The notes under the pieces: model-generated
Database searches by the model: none
Seen by the model: the letters and a program-made list of their open reading frames with translations, nothing else
Told to the model about the DNA's origin: nothing
From: a virus
Lineage: Duplodnaviria; Caudoviricetes
Virus record (IMG/VR): IMGVR_UViG_2061766007_004032
Direction: 5' to 3' (one strand)
Length of the DNA stretch: 64,000 nucleotides
Made by a program: the position numbers and the translations under genes
Shown here: piece by piece, positions 3,730 through 44,013 of the stretch
How the letters are laid out: every line of letters begins with the position of its first letter
Numbering within the stretch: position 1 is the first letter of the stretch

Positions 3730-6700
3730 TTAGTTAATCTGCTTCGCGTTCGCCACATACGCGCTCGGCATTATCTGCGTGAACGACATCATCGTGTAAA
3801 CGGTTGCGGTCGCGTCGCAGTTAATTACCGGAATGTTGCCGTCGTCTGTGAAAACGTTTATCCCCGTCGTAACGCTCAGCGTCGGCGCGGAAGCCATTCC
3901 CGGGCACTCGAATATGATAACAAAATCGTTAACCTCGCCGCTTACGCTGGGCGGCAACGGGATAACCACCTTACCGGTGATGCCGGAGTCGACGCTGACG
4001 TGGGTTATGGTGTTGGTTTTAACGCTTATTGTCTGGTTGCCGCTGGCCAGCGTCCCGCTGTCCTCCACGAGTGTGTACTGCGTCGCGGAGGAAAGCGTGC
4101 TGACCGCGTCGTCGAAATCGTTCTTTCCGACAAAATCCTGCTGAATCTGCCACATCGGCATCGCGTCGTCCAACTCCTCGGCCTCGGCAACGTTAGCGAC
4201 CCTCGCGCCGTACATATCGTTGTACTCCGCGCTCGTGACGTAAAGCGTGTTAGAGAGAATCTGGTTGTTGGCGAGAAGTGATTGGTAATCCGACAGCGCG
4301 ATGTGCATCATGTTCACGTTATCGAAGTTCCCGTCCACGGAAACCGCGCTCTTTTTGGAAATCGCCTGGGTAACCGTAACCCGCTCGAAGTAAGACGAGG
4401 TGTTCGCCCACGTTCCCGACGCGTGGTCCGCCTTACAGATATAATACTGTTGGGTCGCCGGATAAAACACCATCGTCCCCTCTTTGTACGCCTGTGAGGT
4501 CAGAAAATCTGGCGGACGCTCATAATTGGAAATCAGTGTGTTGAGATACGACGGGGATGTGGCGTACCCGATTCCGTACGTGCTGGAAAGGTTGGACGAC
4601 GTGTAGCTGGTCAAAACCATGACCAGACCGGACTTGTCTGTGGTACCCTTATTGGGTAGCAACGCCACCCAGTTGGTGCCGTCAAACTCAAACCCAATCG
4701 TCTGCCCGCCGTACCAGATGCTCTTGTTGAAGTTGTAATCGGTTGTGGAACCGTTGATTTTAACATCCACCGCCCCGGCGGAGTTGACGTTCAGCTGGAG
4801 GGTGCTCGTACCCGTGTGGGCGTAGGTAAACTGCACGAACACTATCCGACCCTTGGCGTTGCCGGGGAAGGACGGGCAAGAGATTACCTTGGTGTTGGCG
4901 GAAGCCGCCGTCGAGCACGTCCCGAAATAAACCTCGGCGTCTCTTGAGCTGAGGTACGCCGAGATGGAGTCCACCTCGGTTTTAGTGTAATAGTCAGAGA
5001 GCGACTGGTGTGAGGTAAGGAAATCGCCAGAAAGGCTCTGGAACACGGGGTCCGTTTCCGTGAAAGATGTCAGCATTTTGTGGTTCAGGACCGAAATCGC
5101 GTCGCCAATCCTGAAAACCTCGAATTTGCTAGAAACCGTGTTCCAGTCCTGGTTCCCGGGAACAGCTTCCTTACACCGATAAACCTGTCCATTGTACTCA
5201 ACCATGTCATCGATTGAATACGCAACATCTGAAAGCCACGTCGTCGGATAGACCTTCTGGGAGACCGCGTTGCTGACGTAGTTGTCCCTGGCGGTGAGAA
5301 TCGCGGAAATCGAGCTGATTGTCGCGGTCAGGTTTCCCGACATGGTGGTGCTCAGCCATCGGTCGTTCGAGGTCAGGCGGTTGAACACGTTAGTGGTCAG
5401 CGTTGAGCTCAGCCACGTTTTGTCCTGACTGTAAGCCGTCGAGTCCACCTTCGCGGTCAGGAGTGTCCCGCTGATATAGTCCATCCCGCCGGTCAGAACC
5501 GAGGAAACGGAATCGACTATCGAGGTGACCTCCCCTTTGCTGTAAAAGTTGGTCAGCGTTTCCGGAATGGCGGTGATGGTGTTGCTAAGAAACTGAATCC
5601 CGGCGTTGAGTGTCGACGAGACAGAGCTTATCGTCGCCGTCAGGTTTCCCGACATGGTGGTGCTCAGCCATCGGTCGTTGGCAGTCAGTTTCCCGCTCAG
5701 CGTCTGAATCTCGCTTTTATTGTAATAGTTGGTCAGCGACTGGTGCGAGGTCAGCATCATTCCCTTGTACATATTGAGAATGTCCCCTATCGGGTATTCC
5801 GAGAAACTGGTTGACACCTCGGACCATTCCCCAGCCGTGAGGACGTTGGACTGACAGACGTACATTTTGCCGTCAACCGTCACGCAGTCGCCGATGTTGT
5901 ACGTTGAAGACTGGCTGAATTCCTGGGTTGCATTTATCTTGAGCAGTAGTTCGTTCGAGACCGAGCTGATTGTGCTCGTCAGGTTCCCGGACATGGTCGT
6001 GCTGAGCCAGTCGTCGTTCGCTGTGAGTTTTCCGCTGAGGGTCTGAATCTCGCTCTTGGTGTAATAGTTGGTCAACGACTGGTGGGACGTGAGAAACTGG
6101 CTGGAAAGGCTTTTGAATACGGGGTCCGTTTCCGCGGTAATCATCGCCCCGCTGACATAGGAAATCTCGTCGGAAAGCCTGGAGTTTATCGAGTTTATCG
6201 AGTCGCCGAGGCTTTTCTATGTGAAATTGGAAGAGGTGTCTGCCCACGTCCCGGTGCTGTCGGAGGAGCACTGGTAAACCATTCCCGCCGTCAGGACGCA
6301 GTCCCCGACCTTATACTGGGTCAAGGAGTTGAAGGCGGTCGGATAAACGAACCCGGTCAGCGTGTTGAACACGGAATATCCGGTTTCCGCTCCACTGGCT
6401 CGTGCCGCCGTTATCTGCGTCGTGAGAAGTTTCACGGTTCCCTGGTACGCGGAGGTTGCCGAAGGCGGGGAAACTACGTGGAAGTATGTCCCGTCGTACG
6501 CGATGGGGACAATCTGGTTTGCGTACCACATTCTCACGGTTGGTTTGGTGGTTCCGTACCAGTAGAGGTTTTTGGCCGAGTCGGGCAGACCGTTTACCGA
6601 AATCAAAGGCGTCGCGGCTGAATTCGTGACCGTGAATTTGGTAATGAAAATCTACCCAGCGGAAAGCTGTCTTATCCCGTCGCAGGAAATCACTTTCGTG

Positions 6701-22389: not shown

Positions 22390-22476
22390 TATTTACGCCC
22401 CCAAAACGGCAAAAAAACCCGATGGAGTAAATAACACCACGTCTAAATTGTCTGTATAATATTTAACATATTATAC
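22390..22476. promoter_or_regulatory. divergent control region with two GTAAATA and two GTATAATAT motifs
   Basis: GTAAATA 22390-22396(-) and 22427-22433(+); GTATAATAT-TTAAC-ATATTATAC palindrome 22454-22476. Confidence 0.65.
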
Positions 22477-30534: not shown

Positions 30535-30729
30535 TTATCCCCCAATCACTTTCTTGGCTTTCGGCTCTTTCAGCGGGACCGGGGCAAAAGAGGTCAGGTC
30601 GTCCGAAACCCACAGCTTCCTGTCCGTGTCGTAATAATAGAAATTCACCTTTCTCGACAGCTTATCCCAGTCCAAAAAACCCTGGAACTTCTTACCGTCC
30701 GAGACTCTGACCATTGTCACTATATTCAT
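30535..30729 (-). CDS. small hypothetical protein
   Basis: 64 aa from ATG 30729 (MNIVTMVRVSDG); its ATG is part of the TTCAT target of the adjacent element. Confidence 0.65.
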   Translation of the reverse strand: MNIVTMVRVSDGKKFQGFLDWDKLSRKVNFYYYDTDRKLWVSDDLTSFAPVPLKEPKAKKVIGG

Positions 30730-30984
30730 AATATCTTGGCGAAGGAAACGCAACCATCTTTAGTGGTTGCGATGAATTCGCCACTCCTCTTCATCTAATA
30801 TTATACGGCTTTATGCTGTCTTGTATCAATCAGTACTGAATCGGGAATCAACGCCTGCGGAGTTGAAGGCTCTGATTTTGGATGTCGAACATCCAAGATG
30901 AAACCATCGACATTGAAGCAGGAAAATCCGAGGGAAGTTCAACCACCCTCAATCTCAACGGTCTTCAGCCGTTGAGCAGTTGAA
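30730..30984 (+). mobile_element. 255-bp non-autonomous IS200/IS605-family mini-element (no tnpA/tnpB)
   Basis: Left-end hairpin CGCAACCA-TCTTTAG-TGGTTGCG with guide GAAA at +16..+19 and target TCAT; right-end hairpin CTCAACGG-TCTTCAG-CCGTTGAG with guide CAAT at -35..-32 and end TGAA; removing it restores an SD and an ATGA gene overlap. Confidence 0.85.
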
Positions 30985-31000
30985 AATTTCTCCGTATTTC
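30843..31000 (+). ncRNA. putative TnpB omega-RNA (reRNA) scaffold plus flank-derived guide
   Basis: Nested stems CCTGC/GCAGG, GTTGAAGG/CCATCGAC, ATTTTGGATGT/ACATCCAAGAT, GAGGG/CCCTC and terminal hairpin; TCAAC 30848-30852 complementary to GTTGA 30979-30983; boundaries approximate. Confidence 0.7.
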
Positions 31001-32198
31001 TCGCGGAATCCCCCGCTATGAGGAGTGAAACCAACAAATTCGCGGCGTATCCGCACAAAATCAGAACCATAACCGGGAAGAACCCGCTAAACCTGCCCAG
31101 AACGAACGTCGAGCAGAGATAGGCCATCAATGAGGCCATTCCCCACGAAGTTAAACAGAAGCCGTGCCTTTGGGACAGTGTGTCCTTACCGTACCGGCTC
31201 TCGAGGACGCTCGGGAGGACGGCGAAAGCCGCCCCGTACCCGGAGTGGACCAAAATCACGGCAATCGCGGCGGGAACCGCCATCCACCCGATTCCGAAGG
31301 AGAGGAGAATCGGTGCCATGAGAAGAATTTCGAACGCGACAATCGAAACCGTGATTTTCGACCGGTTTTTCAGAAAATCGCTGACCGCCGGGAAAACGAG
31401 ACGCCCGACGCCGTTGAAAATCCCGCACAGCATCATCACGGTTATGACCGCTTCCCCGGAAAGACCCATCTCCCTGAGAACGCTCGCACAGGAGCCGATG
31501 AGAATCAGTCCCATGGAAATGTTCAGGAACATAAAGAGCCAGGTTTTCCCGAAGAACCCGCTTTTAAGCGTGTCGATGTACGAAAACGGGCTTTTTTTCT
31601 GCCTTTTAAGCTTCAAAAGGGCGTATTTCGGCTTGTTGATGAGAAAAGCGGAAAGAAACGCCGGGACAGAATAAATCGCCGCGAGGGAATAAAACATTCC
31701 GGAAATTCCCGCCTTCGGGAAAAGGGTTCCAAAAAGCCACGAGCAGACGGCGGAGCCGAGACCGAAGGTGAAAATCGAAATCGCGGAGAGAATCCCCTTA
31801 TGTTTGGTGGCCGGGAACCAGAGAATCATGTTCTTGTTCGGGGTGACGTATCCGCACCCCTCCGCGGTTCCGGCGAAAAACCCGCACCCAAGGTACATCA
31901 ACCAAATGTTTTTCAGCTGGCAGGCGAGACCGCCGAGAGCCAGACCGACAACAAGAAGCGTCGCGGAAACGGTCGCCGCAAGCCCGATTCTCTTTTCGAC
32001 GAGCGGACCGAAGGTGGCCGCGCCCATCCCGAGGAAGAATATGTTCAGGCAGAACGTGAACTGGGCGGATTTTACCGAACAGCCGATTGCCTCGGCGATA
32101 TGCGGCGTAAAAAGACTCCACGCATAGCAGAACCCGATGCAAAGGGTTAAAAGAACGCAGGGGATTACGGATTTCGAAAGCTTGTACAGAAGTTTCAT
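30939..32198 (-). CDS. MFS transporter, oxalate/formate antiporter (OFA)-like
   Basis: About 12 hydrophobic segments; IGFCYAWSLF, GYVTP....ILWFP and IFNGVGRL motifs. Confidence 0.88.
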   Translation of the reverse strand: MKLLYKLSKSVIPCVLLTLCIGFCYAWSLFTPHIAEAIGCSVKSAQFTFCLNIFFLGMGAATFGPLVEKRIGLAATVSATLLVVGLALGGLACQLKNIWLMYLGCGFFAGTAEGCGYVTPNKNMILWFPATKHKGILSAISIFTFGLGSAVCSWLFGTLFPKAGISGMFYSLAAIYSVPAFLSAFLINKPKYALLKLKRQKKSPFSYIDTLKSGFFGKTWLFMFLNISMGLILIGSCASVLREMGLSGEAVITVMMLCGIFNGVGRLVFPAVSDFLKNRSKITVSIVAFEILLMAPILLSFGIGWMAVPAAIAVILVHSGYGAAFAVLPSVLESRYGKDTLSQRHGFCLTSWGMASLMAYLCSTFVLGRFSGFFPVMVLILCGYAANLLVSLLIAGDSARNTEKFSTAQRLKTVEIEGG

Positions 32199-32841: not shown

Positions 32842-32858
32842 AAAGAATATTATACTTT

Positions 32859-34172
32859 TCACAAATCGTCGATTTCCATCATGTTCATGTTTCTCGGGTC
32901 GAAATTCGGGAAACCGGTCGCGACGAGAAAGTTCCTCAGCGTGTTGATGATGAGCTTTTCCCACATAACGTCGTAGTCGATTTGAAAAATTTCCCCGAAC
33001 TCCTTCGGGTACTGGTCCGGCTTGTACGCGAGAACGTTTATCGCGAACTTGTTCGACGGCTTGACGTACAGGAACCTCACCTTGTCCCCGACCAGAATGT
33101 GGTCGTACAGTTTCCCGAGCCCCATCTTGTCGATAATCTGGTTGTAGAACGTGCAAGCCTTGGCGATGCCCGTTGTTCCCTTCATCATTTCCAGAAATCC
33201 GGTGGACTCCCTCTCGGTGCCGTACCCCTTCCAGAAAGCTATCTCGTCCACACCGAGCCTTATGAACTTTTCGTACGCGGCGGACAGGTATTTCCTGAAA
33301 TCGTCGGATTTCCACCTCTTCGTCAGAACGCCGCCGTAAATGTCGCCGAGAATCTCCTTAACCATCGGCGGAACGTTCCCCTTCTTGAGCTCGATTCCGG
33401 AATACTTGATTTTGTCCACCACCTCCGGACCCTCGGAAACGATTTTCCTGACCCCGTAGTGCTTCTTCGACTCGTAGATTCCCGTGTCGGCTATGTATTC
33501 CAGCGAATACCTCAGCACCCCCGGGTTTTCCGAGCGGTACTTTTCCTTGACAAGGTTCTGGACATAGGGGTTCAGGTCGTTCTCGACAAAATCCTCGACG
33601 TATTTCCACAGCTTCAGCTTCCACTCGTCGGACCAGTCGATTAGGTTTTCCGGGAGGTTGTTCTGACGCCTGAAAAAGTCGGTTATGCAACGGATGGAAA
33701 TGAACTGCGAGTTGTGGACGAGGATGTTGTCCGCGTAAAAGCAGTGCCCGTCGTCGTCGACCTCGATGTCGTAGACCCACTCCTCGGTTTTCCCGGTGTC
33801 ATCGATTTTCGAAATTTCCCCGACCAGCTCGGAATCCGACTTTCTGTCGTAGACGGAGACAAGGTCCCCGACGCGGAGCTCTTTGGCGGCCTTGTTTTCG
33901 AAAAAGTGGTCCGTGTTGTAAACCATGCAGACGTGGTCGGTCGTTACGGTTACGGAATCCTCGCCCCTTTCCGAGGAAACGGTCACCCTAATCATGTTTT
34001 TCACGGTCTTGTGCCTCGAGACGTAGATTATCCTCGAGAAACCGTTTCCGAGCGTCCTGGTTTCCACGTCGCCGCAGTAAATCAGCTCGTAGCCGTTCAT
34101 CTTTATGACTTTTCTCCCCTCGTCGAGTAGGGACTGGTAAAAATCTTCCAGCGAGACGTCTTTTTCTTCCAT
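32859..34172 (-). CDS. DNA polymerase B C-terminal half fused to split-intein C fragment
   Basis: 154-aa HINT fragment followed by SQFI...LEYI...SKKHYG...IKYSGIELKK polB palm/thumb motifs. Confidence 0.92.
   Translation of the reverse strand: MEEKDVSLEDFYQSLLDEGRKVIKMNGYELIYCGDVETRTLGNGFSRIIYVSRHKTVKNMIRVTVSSERGEDSVTVTTDHVCMVYNTDHFFENKAAKELRVGDLVSVYDRKSDSELVGEISKIDDTGKTEEWVYDIEVDDDGHCFYADNILVHNSQFISIRCITDFFRRQNNLPENLIDWSDEWKLKLWKYVEDFVENDLNPYVQNLVKEKYRSENPGVLRYSLEYIADTGIYESKKHYGVRKIVSEGPEVVDKIKYSGIELKKGNVPPMVKEILGDIYGGVLTKRWKSDDFRKYLSAAYEKFIRLGVDEIAFWKGYGTERESTGFLEMMKGTTGIAKACTFYNQIIDKMGLGKLYDHILVGDKVRFLYVKPSNKFAINVLAYKPDQYPKEFGEIFQIDYDVMWEKLIINTLRNFLVATGFPNFDPRNMNMMEIDDL
33711..34172 (-). 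other. split intein C fragment (154 aa)
   Basis: Block B VTVTTDH, block F WVYDIEV, block G ILVHN followed by Ser+1. Confidence 0.92.
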
Positions 34173-43903: not shown

Positions 43904-44013
43904 TAAAATATTTTCCTATAGGAAAACACGCGTAAATCTTCCGTTTTAAAGGTAAAAACAGATAAATCGCGTGTTTTGGAAATATTATACAAAAAAAAAA
44001 AACGTATAATATG

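Follow-up and report, generated by a model that had tools for sequence, protein, structure and literature searches.

A gene-less, probably IS200/IS605-type element with a RAGATH-18-like guide-RNA scaffold in a T4-like phage of the cow rumen

Introduction

Palindrome-associated transposable elements (PATEs) are gene-less derivatives of IS200/IS605 elements that "often encode omega RNAs", and these RNAs are acted on in trans (Meers et al. 2023, PMC10055086). (The term comes from work on Haloquadratum, PMC3119063, as that work is cited in PMC10055086.) Here we describe a 255-bp phage element that resembles PATEs in that it has hairpin ends, has no protein gene, has kept an omega RNA, would need TnpA and TnpB in trans, and was inserted without an evident target duplication. 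Unlike PATEs, which lie in bacterial or archaeal chromosomes, it lies in a T4-like phage, it is present as a single copy in the DNA that we saw, and it has a RAGATH-18-type omega RNA.

The guide RNA (reRNA) of ISFba1-type TnpB proteins is built around a RAGATH-18 core, with conserved sequence on either side (about 50 and 60 nt) and then a 20-nt guide (PMC11061315). The transposon-adjacent motif (TAM) of ISFba1-type IS607 systems is AGGAG or GAGGG (Ren et al. 2024, PMC11061315). Our element has much in common with the ISFba1-type reRNA (RF03064): an outer stem, kink-turn-type loops (GGA and UGAA), an inner stem, and a 3' flank of about 60 nt before the guide, all in a scaffold that is largely separable from the protein gene. 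It differs in that it scores below the Rfam cut-off, its inner part is different, it is flanked by TTCAT, its hairpin ends are of the Y1 type, and there is no adjacent tnpB. To our knowledge, guide RNAs of the RAGATH-18 superfamily have so far been published only for the TnpB proteins of IS607 elements.

With IS608 and ISDra2 the element shares subterminal hairpins, insertion 3' of a short T-rich motif, a right end that lies within the guide RNA, and a guide that matches the donor joint. In contrast, neither its ends nor its omega RNA have sequence similarity to those of IS608 or ISDra2, the IS605-orfB models of Rfam do not match it, and its left end forms a hairpin of two tiers in which the loops are fixed. 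The steps of transposition, cleavage and repair that we propose below are taken from the established model for IS608, ISDra2 and ISGst (PMC10055086).

A further likeness is to the free-standing homing endonuclease genes of T-even phages (seg and mob), which have been discussed together with "transposon non-restorative homing" (PMC13565253); a 2026 review has a category for such transposons homing into co-infecting phages. Like seg and mob, our element might spread among co-infecting phages by means of cutting the allele that lacks it. Unlike them, it encodes no nuclease, and for our element the cutting is only proposed.

The kind of element that we report is thus already described, and what we add is modest: the occurrence in a phage for which an empty site is documented, and the combination of a RAGATH-18-like scaffold with Y1-type ends. 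The result is at the level of annotation and involves no new mechanism. It does provide a clean natural case, documented by a filled and an empty allele in sister phages, in which a large lytic-type phage holds a gene-less IS200/IS605 derivative that has kept the ends and the guide RNA alone. It also indicates that RAGATH-18-like guide RNAs, in a family that falls below the Rfam threshold, ride on hairpin-ended phage elements with Y1 transposases. If RNA-only copies are used in trans, then phage-to-phage RNA-guided homing could be tested with a very small construct.

The phage and its MFS transporter gene

The window (the whole stretch of DNA that we analyzed, 64 kb in length) is, as judged from its genes, part of a T4-like phage from the cow rumen. 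Its proteins include a T4-type major capsid protein (Gp23, E = 5e-75) and a T4-type portal, and nearly all of its genes are on the minus strand. Stretches that are identical to the window are found in the JGI contig CowRDRAFT01_c0000037 (71.5 kb), in the ENA/Logan assemblies of PRJNA60251 runs, and in one further assembly.

The portal of the window is a single ORF of 522 amino acids. In a relative with a 315-kb contig, the T4-type portal is present as two ORFs of 294 and 185 amino acids with a gap between them (L074:5720-7285; also L076 and L077), which could reflect an intervening element or a frameshift. Two other ORFs of this phage may be noted: a 437-aa ORF (32859-34172, minus strand) has a sub-threshold match to an intein splicing domain (E = 2.8e-7), and a small HNH-type ORF lies in the neighboring part of the phage contig (L084 17391-17702).

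The element lies between an MFS transporter gene and a small gene. Auxiliary genes for MFS transporters are unusual in T4-like phages, and this one has been kept in several related rumen phages in IMG/VR (64-65% identity) and is syntenic in the 315-kb relative. The small protein has homologues (P0003 and P0004) in syntenic phage loci.

An insertion with a natural empty site

The features at this site are:

30939 to 32198, minus strand: MFS transporter gene (translation; Pfam MFS_1)
30535 to 30729, minus strand: phage gene for a 64-aa protein, downstream of the insertion (translation)
30730 to 30984, plus strand: the whole element, 255 bp and gene-less, very probably a non-autonomous IS200/IS605-type (PATE-like) element; absent from the sister phage L073
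30725 to 30729, plus strand: putative target or transposon-adjacent motif TTCAT, at the left limit of the indel relative to the empty site of L073

The original prediction for this DNA was of a protein-free mini-element of 255 bp, from 30730 to 30984, whose removal would restore the overlap of the two genes. Its letters and coordinates are correct (TTCAT at 30725-30729, GAAA at 30745-30748, and CAAT at 30950-30953), and we checked by hand that if 30730-30984 is deleted in silico, the MFS frame ends with AAA TTA TGA, which overlaps the next ATG, and GGAG comes to lie 7 nt upstream of this start. The predicted empty site does exist. L073, a 1-kb contig from a related rumen phage, encodes a small protein that is 89% identical to the 64-aa protein of the window, and it reads ...GGAGAAAAAAATT|ATGAAC without the 255-bp block: the end of its MFS gene abuts the small gene at ...GGAGAAA(AAAA)TT|ATGAA. 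By this comparison, the block is an insertion relative to the sister phage, and TTCAT|AAT marks the limits of the indel. (It is also possible to place the boundary one base further to the right, after TCATA.) More distant relatives (65% identity, including the 315-kb contig) have a NADAR gene at the site and lack the 255-bp block. Two other relatives of the MFS protein from IMG/VR (L001 and L002) have a different downstream gene, so they are uninformative about the insertion site; neither has a tnpB.

The element ends with ...CAGTTGAA at 30984. Its copies in L007 and L009 are identical to it, while the copy in L008 has three base changes, all within its last 25 nt. L008 shares the element and the left flank with the window, and its homology to the window breaks off exactly after ...TTGAA(A), which fixes the right boundary independently at TTGAA or TTGAAA. 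The different flank from the right end onwards makes this a second right-end junction. Recombination or a chimeric assembly could explain L008; its other flank was not found in the window, in IMG/VR, or in any of the loci that we fetched. Together, the empty site of L073 and the right end in L008 bear out the predicted boundaries, and no ORF of substance was found between them.

Relative to L073, the insertion is precise, is 3' of a short motif, and has no target duplication. Although AAT is present at both junctions, no duplication is needed to explain this, because the left ends of the related elements L040 and L067 have AAT(A/C)TCT as a conserved start (the first bases of our element, AATATCT, correspond to AATCTCT in these).

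The insertion has altered both neighboring genes. The 64-aa gene is no longer preceded by its GGAG ribosome site and no longer overlaps the MFS gene at ATGA. In the MFS gene, the stop and the last 15 codons are now derived from the element, and the first of these codons spans the junction. The protein of the empty-site form would end with ...NTEKL*, and the proteins of MFS relatives end 3-17 residues sooner.

For the phage of the window itself, the exact empty allele is predicted to be TTCAT|AATTTCTCCG. Within the cluster of MFS proteins, we found no element-free allele of the same phage. L073 is the only sister phage that we saw with an empty site, and it would not be a target for the guide because its guide region differs from that of the window.

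A guide-RNA scaffold that ends at the insertion boundary

The right part of the element holds the following features:

30842 to 30924, plus strand: putative core of the guide-RNA (omega RNA or reRNA) scaffold, matched by RAGATH-18 and by our model R1
30925 to 30984, plus strand: putative 3' part of the scaffold, doubling as the transposon right end (layout as in L040 and L067; fold)
30985 to 31004, plus strand: predicted guide portion, AATTTCTCCGTATTTC(TCGC), in the flanking phage DNA; it follows the scaffold end as fixed by L073 and L008

At gathering scores, an Rfam scan that included the IS605-orfB models had no match in the element. With permissive settings, the best match was RAGATH-18 (RF03064) at 30854-30924 on the plus strand, with 24.2 bits and E = 0.046, as compared to a gathering cut-off of 44.9 bits. 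That cut-off was not reached by any tnpB-linked phage relative in the sample that we tested either, which suggests that the phage relatives are an uncatalogued sister group of RAGATH-18.

We identified these relatives by searching IMG/VR with a degenerate pattern for the core, which gave 39 phage loci. Many have a TnpB ORF directly upstream (Pfam domains OrfB_IS605, HTH, and TNB), and this ORF often reads through the RNA core. From ten phage homologues, most of which adjoin a tnpB gene, and without the window, we built a covariance model (R1). Because MAFFT and RNAalifold recovered only the outer stem of the family, the structure was supplied by hand and then refitted with the model. The sole match of R1 in the 64 kb was at 30842-30942 on the plus strand (42.7 bits, E about 6e-11), and canonical RAGATH-18 loci had similar scores (for instance, 39.7 bits for L013). 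In the proposed scan with omega-RNA covariance models, the element falls below the Rfam cut-off for RAGATH-18 and is matched by R1.

The core contains the conserved GGAATCAACG, a CTCTG motif, and kink-turn-type loops (GGA and ATTGAA). Its helices are P1 (CCTGC/GCAGG, 30854-58/30918-22), P2 (GTTGA/TCGAC, 30862-66/30907-11), and the P3 hairpin (30875-85/30889-99). Across 31 aligned relatives, the helix positions were paired in 89.7% of cases, versus 66.2% in shuffles, and there were 154 compensatory cells versus 55 in shuffles, in an alignment that was fitted with the model and so leans towards the structure. Compensatory changes were numerous in P2, P3, and P4. All of the conserved positions of the scaffold, as well as both end hairpins, are intact in the window; in a decayed relative (L036), P2 is broken. 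The frame of the one-time TnpB C-terminus can still be read across the core.

It had been predicted that about 140 nt of the element resembles the 3' part of tnpB and forms an intact omega-RNA scaffold, with a pseudoknot between TCAAC and GTTGA. The scaffold stands, as the right 140-180 nt are of the RAGATH-18 superfamily, but the pseudoknot does not: GTTGA at 30862-30866 is the 5' strand of the covarying helix P2 and pairs instead with TCGAC at 30907-30911.

Downstream of the core are two hairpins, A (30930-34/30946-50) and B (30954-61/30968-76), and the tail CAGTTGAA. This parallels the right ends of L040 and L067, which have two hairpins and then TAGTTCAC; the tail of the window corresponds to the family tail TAGTTCAC/A. 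R1 did not align its own tail to the true end but to AAGTTCAA at 30935-42, and our assignment of the last 42 nt to the scaffold is therefore by analogy to L040 and L067 and from the boundary data. Exactly 60 nt separate the core from the insertion boundary, in agreement with the published 3' flank of about 60 nt for ISFba1-type reRNA. By sequence comparison, then, the right part of the element is a structurally intact guide-RNA member of the RAGATH-18 superfamily that ends exactly at the boundary, and its subterminal hairpin serves at the same time as the final stem-loop of the RNA.

Since the scaffold ends at 30984, the guide reads into the flank, and this flank next to TTCAT is the empty site, as predicted. 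(We adopted a guide length of 16-20 nt from published systems, PMC11061315.) The guide portion is antisense to the 3' end of the MFS gene. That the guide matches the element's own empty site is not special here: it is true of every IS605-type omega RNA by construction.

The left end

30737 to 30783, plus strand: left-end compound hairpin (DNA fold of -15.6 kcal/mol)

Both of the subterminal hairpins that had been proposed from the sequence are real: the left one has z = -5.3 relative to shuffles, and the right one (30954-30976, -9.5 kcal/mol) has z = -4.0. For the whole element region as single-stranded DNA, z = -4.4. The left end is built from an outer stem (TGGCGAA/TTCGCCA) with GGAAA as its 5' loop and ATGAA as its 3' loop, and an inner stem (CGCAACCAT/GTGGTTGCG) with the hairpin loop CTTTA. 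The inner hairpin and hairpin B of the right end are identical at 18 of 24 positions in a gapless local alignment, as expected for two ends that are bound by one transposase.

When we searched upstream of the relatives for sequences that resemble their own right ends, a shared design emerged: an outer stem, a 5' loop G(A/G)AAA, an inner hairpin with TTTA, CTTCA, or TCTTCA as its loop, a 3' loop ATGAA, and the closing strand of the outer stem. The window fits this design exactly (GGAAA ... ATGAA), and the architecture and loop letters are common to L040, L051, L050, L060, L071, and L064. These similarities place the left end of the window in a family of ends from elements with a Y1 (HUH) TnpA and/or a TnpB.

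The motifs that precede the left ends of the relatives, as read by eye, are TTTAT, TTTAC, or TTATC, which have the same general form as TTCAT. The original prediction also had both ends following the pairing rule between guide and cleavage site of IS608. For the left end, in one register that we chose post hoc and with TAMs read by eye, the pairing would be GGAA/TCAT in the window (where the unique G matches the unique C), GAAA/TTAT in L040, L051, L050, and L060, and AAAG/TTAC in L071, and L064 does not fit. The corresponding rule for the right end did not hold consistently. The IS608-like pairing in the window is therefore suggestive only.

Related elements in other phages

Our phage sister group from IMG/VR comprises L036, L038, L040, L049-L051, L057-L060, L062, L064, L067, L068, and L071; it is TnpB-linked, and its elements end in a hairpin and TAGTTCAC. 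In L064 and L071, a Y1 (HUH) TnpA of the IS200 type is encoded next to tnpB, and the TnpA of L064 matches Y1_Tnp with E = 3e-38. This indicates that RAGATH-18-like guide RNAs are also carried by hairpin-ended phage elements of the Y1 type.

Some relatives in other phages have independently lost part or all of tnpB, as we propose for the element of the window. L060, at about 290 bp, is without tnpB but has a left end, scaffold, and right end of the kind seen in the window. L067 (600-1130, minus strand) is an L040-type element with an internal deletion in tnpB that fuses roughly 47 codons of the N-terminus to about 25 from the end of the gene. (The left-end hairpin of L067 has been converted into a long perfect palindrome.) Orphan scaffolds also occur on phage contigs that have tnpB-linked copies: L034 and L066 with L055, and L036 with L059.

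Searches for TnpA, TnpB, and further copies

In the six frames of the 64-kb window, with positive controls run, we found no tnpA or tnpB, not even as fragments; and another 17 kb of the JGI contig had none, for a total of about 81 kb of phage. The original prediction also suggested that there might be further copies of the element or an autonomous parent with the same ends. Neither turned up. We found no second copy in the window, in the extra 17 kb, or in the relatives, and no parent was found by the patterns that we ran against INPHARED, IMG/VR, JGI metagenomes, and GTDB genomes. More specifically, BLAST against INPHARED phages and a search of IMG/VR with the exact right-end hairpin and a two-anchor core pattern gave no further copy or parent. 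An exact 21-mer had no match in the JGI metagenomes, a collection that is also without the window's own contig. A sub-clade pattern, in the metagenomes and IMG/VR, gave only L056 and its kin; a search for relatives of the L040 TnpB returned only that protein; and a search among longer proteins for the C-terminus of a parent TnpB, with the 41-aa remnant frame as the query, did not yield a parent.

A promoter-like site inside the element

30800 to 30829, minus strand: sigma-70-like promoter match (TTGATA, 18 nt, TATAAT), 11 of 12 consensus positions

A scan for consensus promoters found none on the plus strand. The near-consensus match listed above lies on the coding strand of the phage and points at the downstream 64-aa gene. 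It contains the 10-mer GTATAATATT, which occurs five times in the window as compared to 0.02 expected occurrences (696-705 and 22454-22463 on the plus strand; 30797-30806, 32846-32855, and 43981-43990 on the minus strand). These copies are mostly intergenic and follow runs of T, and GTATAATATT is probably the phage's own promoter motif. L040 has a related TTATAC at the equivalent place.

Alternative explanations

We are confident that the block is a non-autonomous IS200/IS605 element of the PATE type that carries an omega RNA. The explanation that we favor, and think probable, is that it is a PATE that arose from a phage-borne parent by deletion of tnpB (and of tnpA, if there was one): the deletion would have left almost nothing between the left-end hairpin module and the guide-RNA scaffold with its right end. 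The element could then have arrived 3' of TTCAT by single-strand "peel and paste" with a TnpA acting in trans, or a sibling phage could have been the source of a copy. Provided that there is plus-strand transcription and that a matching TnpB is supplied by the host, by a co-infecting phage, or by another region of this large phage, the element-free allele would be cut at TTCAT followed by AATTTCTCCGTATTTC, and repair from a copy that bears the element would restore or spread it. We found two other origins much harder to reconcile with the data. A native intergenic region of the phage, with a promoter and small RNA or terminator structures and no insertion, would account for the copy of the phage's recurrent promoter-like motif and for the block being identical in all contigs of the same phage. 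But L073 joins the two genes directly, the distant relatives have the NADAR gene rather than the block, and both halves of the block match transposon-end and guide-RNA families from unrelated phages, so this idea is scarcely tenable; we rejected it because the L073 junction contradicts it. An IS607-type element that was moved by a serine recombinase has to be considered because IS607 TnpB proteins are the only reported partners of RAGATH-18 guide RNAs; RAGATH-18 is the best Rfam match, and the AA at both junctions would be compatible with a 2-nt crossover core. However, the match to RF03064 is far below the cut-off, the flank is TTCAT instead of an AGGAG or GAGGG TAM (IS607-type Bacillus copies, L013 and L019, do have AGGAG), and the two end hairpins resemble one another as well as the ends of elements with a Y1 TnpA. 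Given that flank, and ends that match the kind found in L064 and L071, we place the window with the Y1-type elements and consider an IS607 origin very unlikely; we rejected it too.

If the favored origin is right, the element might still be active, or it might be a deletion derivative that is now neither mobilized nor used as a guide. We give the inert relic a nearly even chance, and our confidence in it overlaps with our confidence in the favored explanation, because the two differ only in present-day activity. A relic could persist because it is harmless, or because the outward promoter-like site helps to express downstream genes whose translational coupling was broken. Consistent with a relic, there is a single copy, about 81 kb of phage has no TnpA or TnpB, a near-consensus promoter-like site (with the recurrent GTATAATATT) lies on the phage coding strand while the scan gave none on the plus strand, and no element-free allele of the same phage is on record. 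Conversely, the scaffold positions and both end hairpins are intact, unlike in the decayed L036; deletion derivatives in three phages all retain the whole scaffold; L008 has a second right-end junction; and most of the phage genome lies outside the DNA that we saw (the relative's contig is 315 kb). On balance, it is possible and somewhat doubtful that the element is able to act today. A bolder version, which we consider improbable, is that the element is an RNA-only selfish element that borrows a TnpB and cuts siblings without the insert, that the flank in L008 is a product of recombination at the cut site, and that the outward promoter compensates for the lost coupling. If that were true, an RNA-only element would cut siblings at the junction of the MFS gene and the small gene, and it would thereby spread by repair or exclude competitors.

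Other observations in related phages and a rumen genome

L049 has a second right-end-like sequence (a hairpin and TAGTTCAC) about 2085 nt upstream of its RNA core, some 2 kb ahead of a tnpB element, which may reflect a tandem or nested insertion beside an older right end. The 179-kb phage contig of L040 encodes a GOLLD RNA (5821-6266, 198.8 bits) and three tRNA genes near the TnpB element. Finally, the rumen metagenome-assembled genome RUG065 contains three orphan scaffolds (L086, L087, and L088) of another RAGATH-like subtype, which end with ...GGAGTGTCA; two of the three lie behind TATAAT-type promoters, and the genome has two matches to OrfB_IS605 elsewhere.
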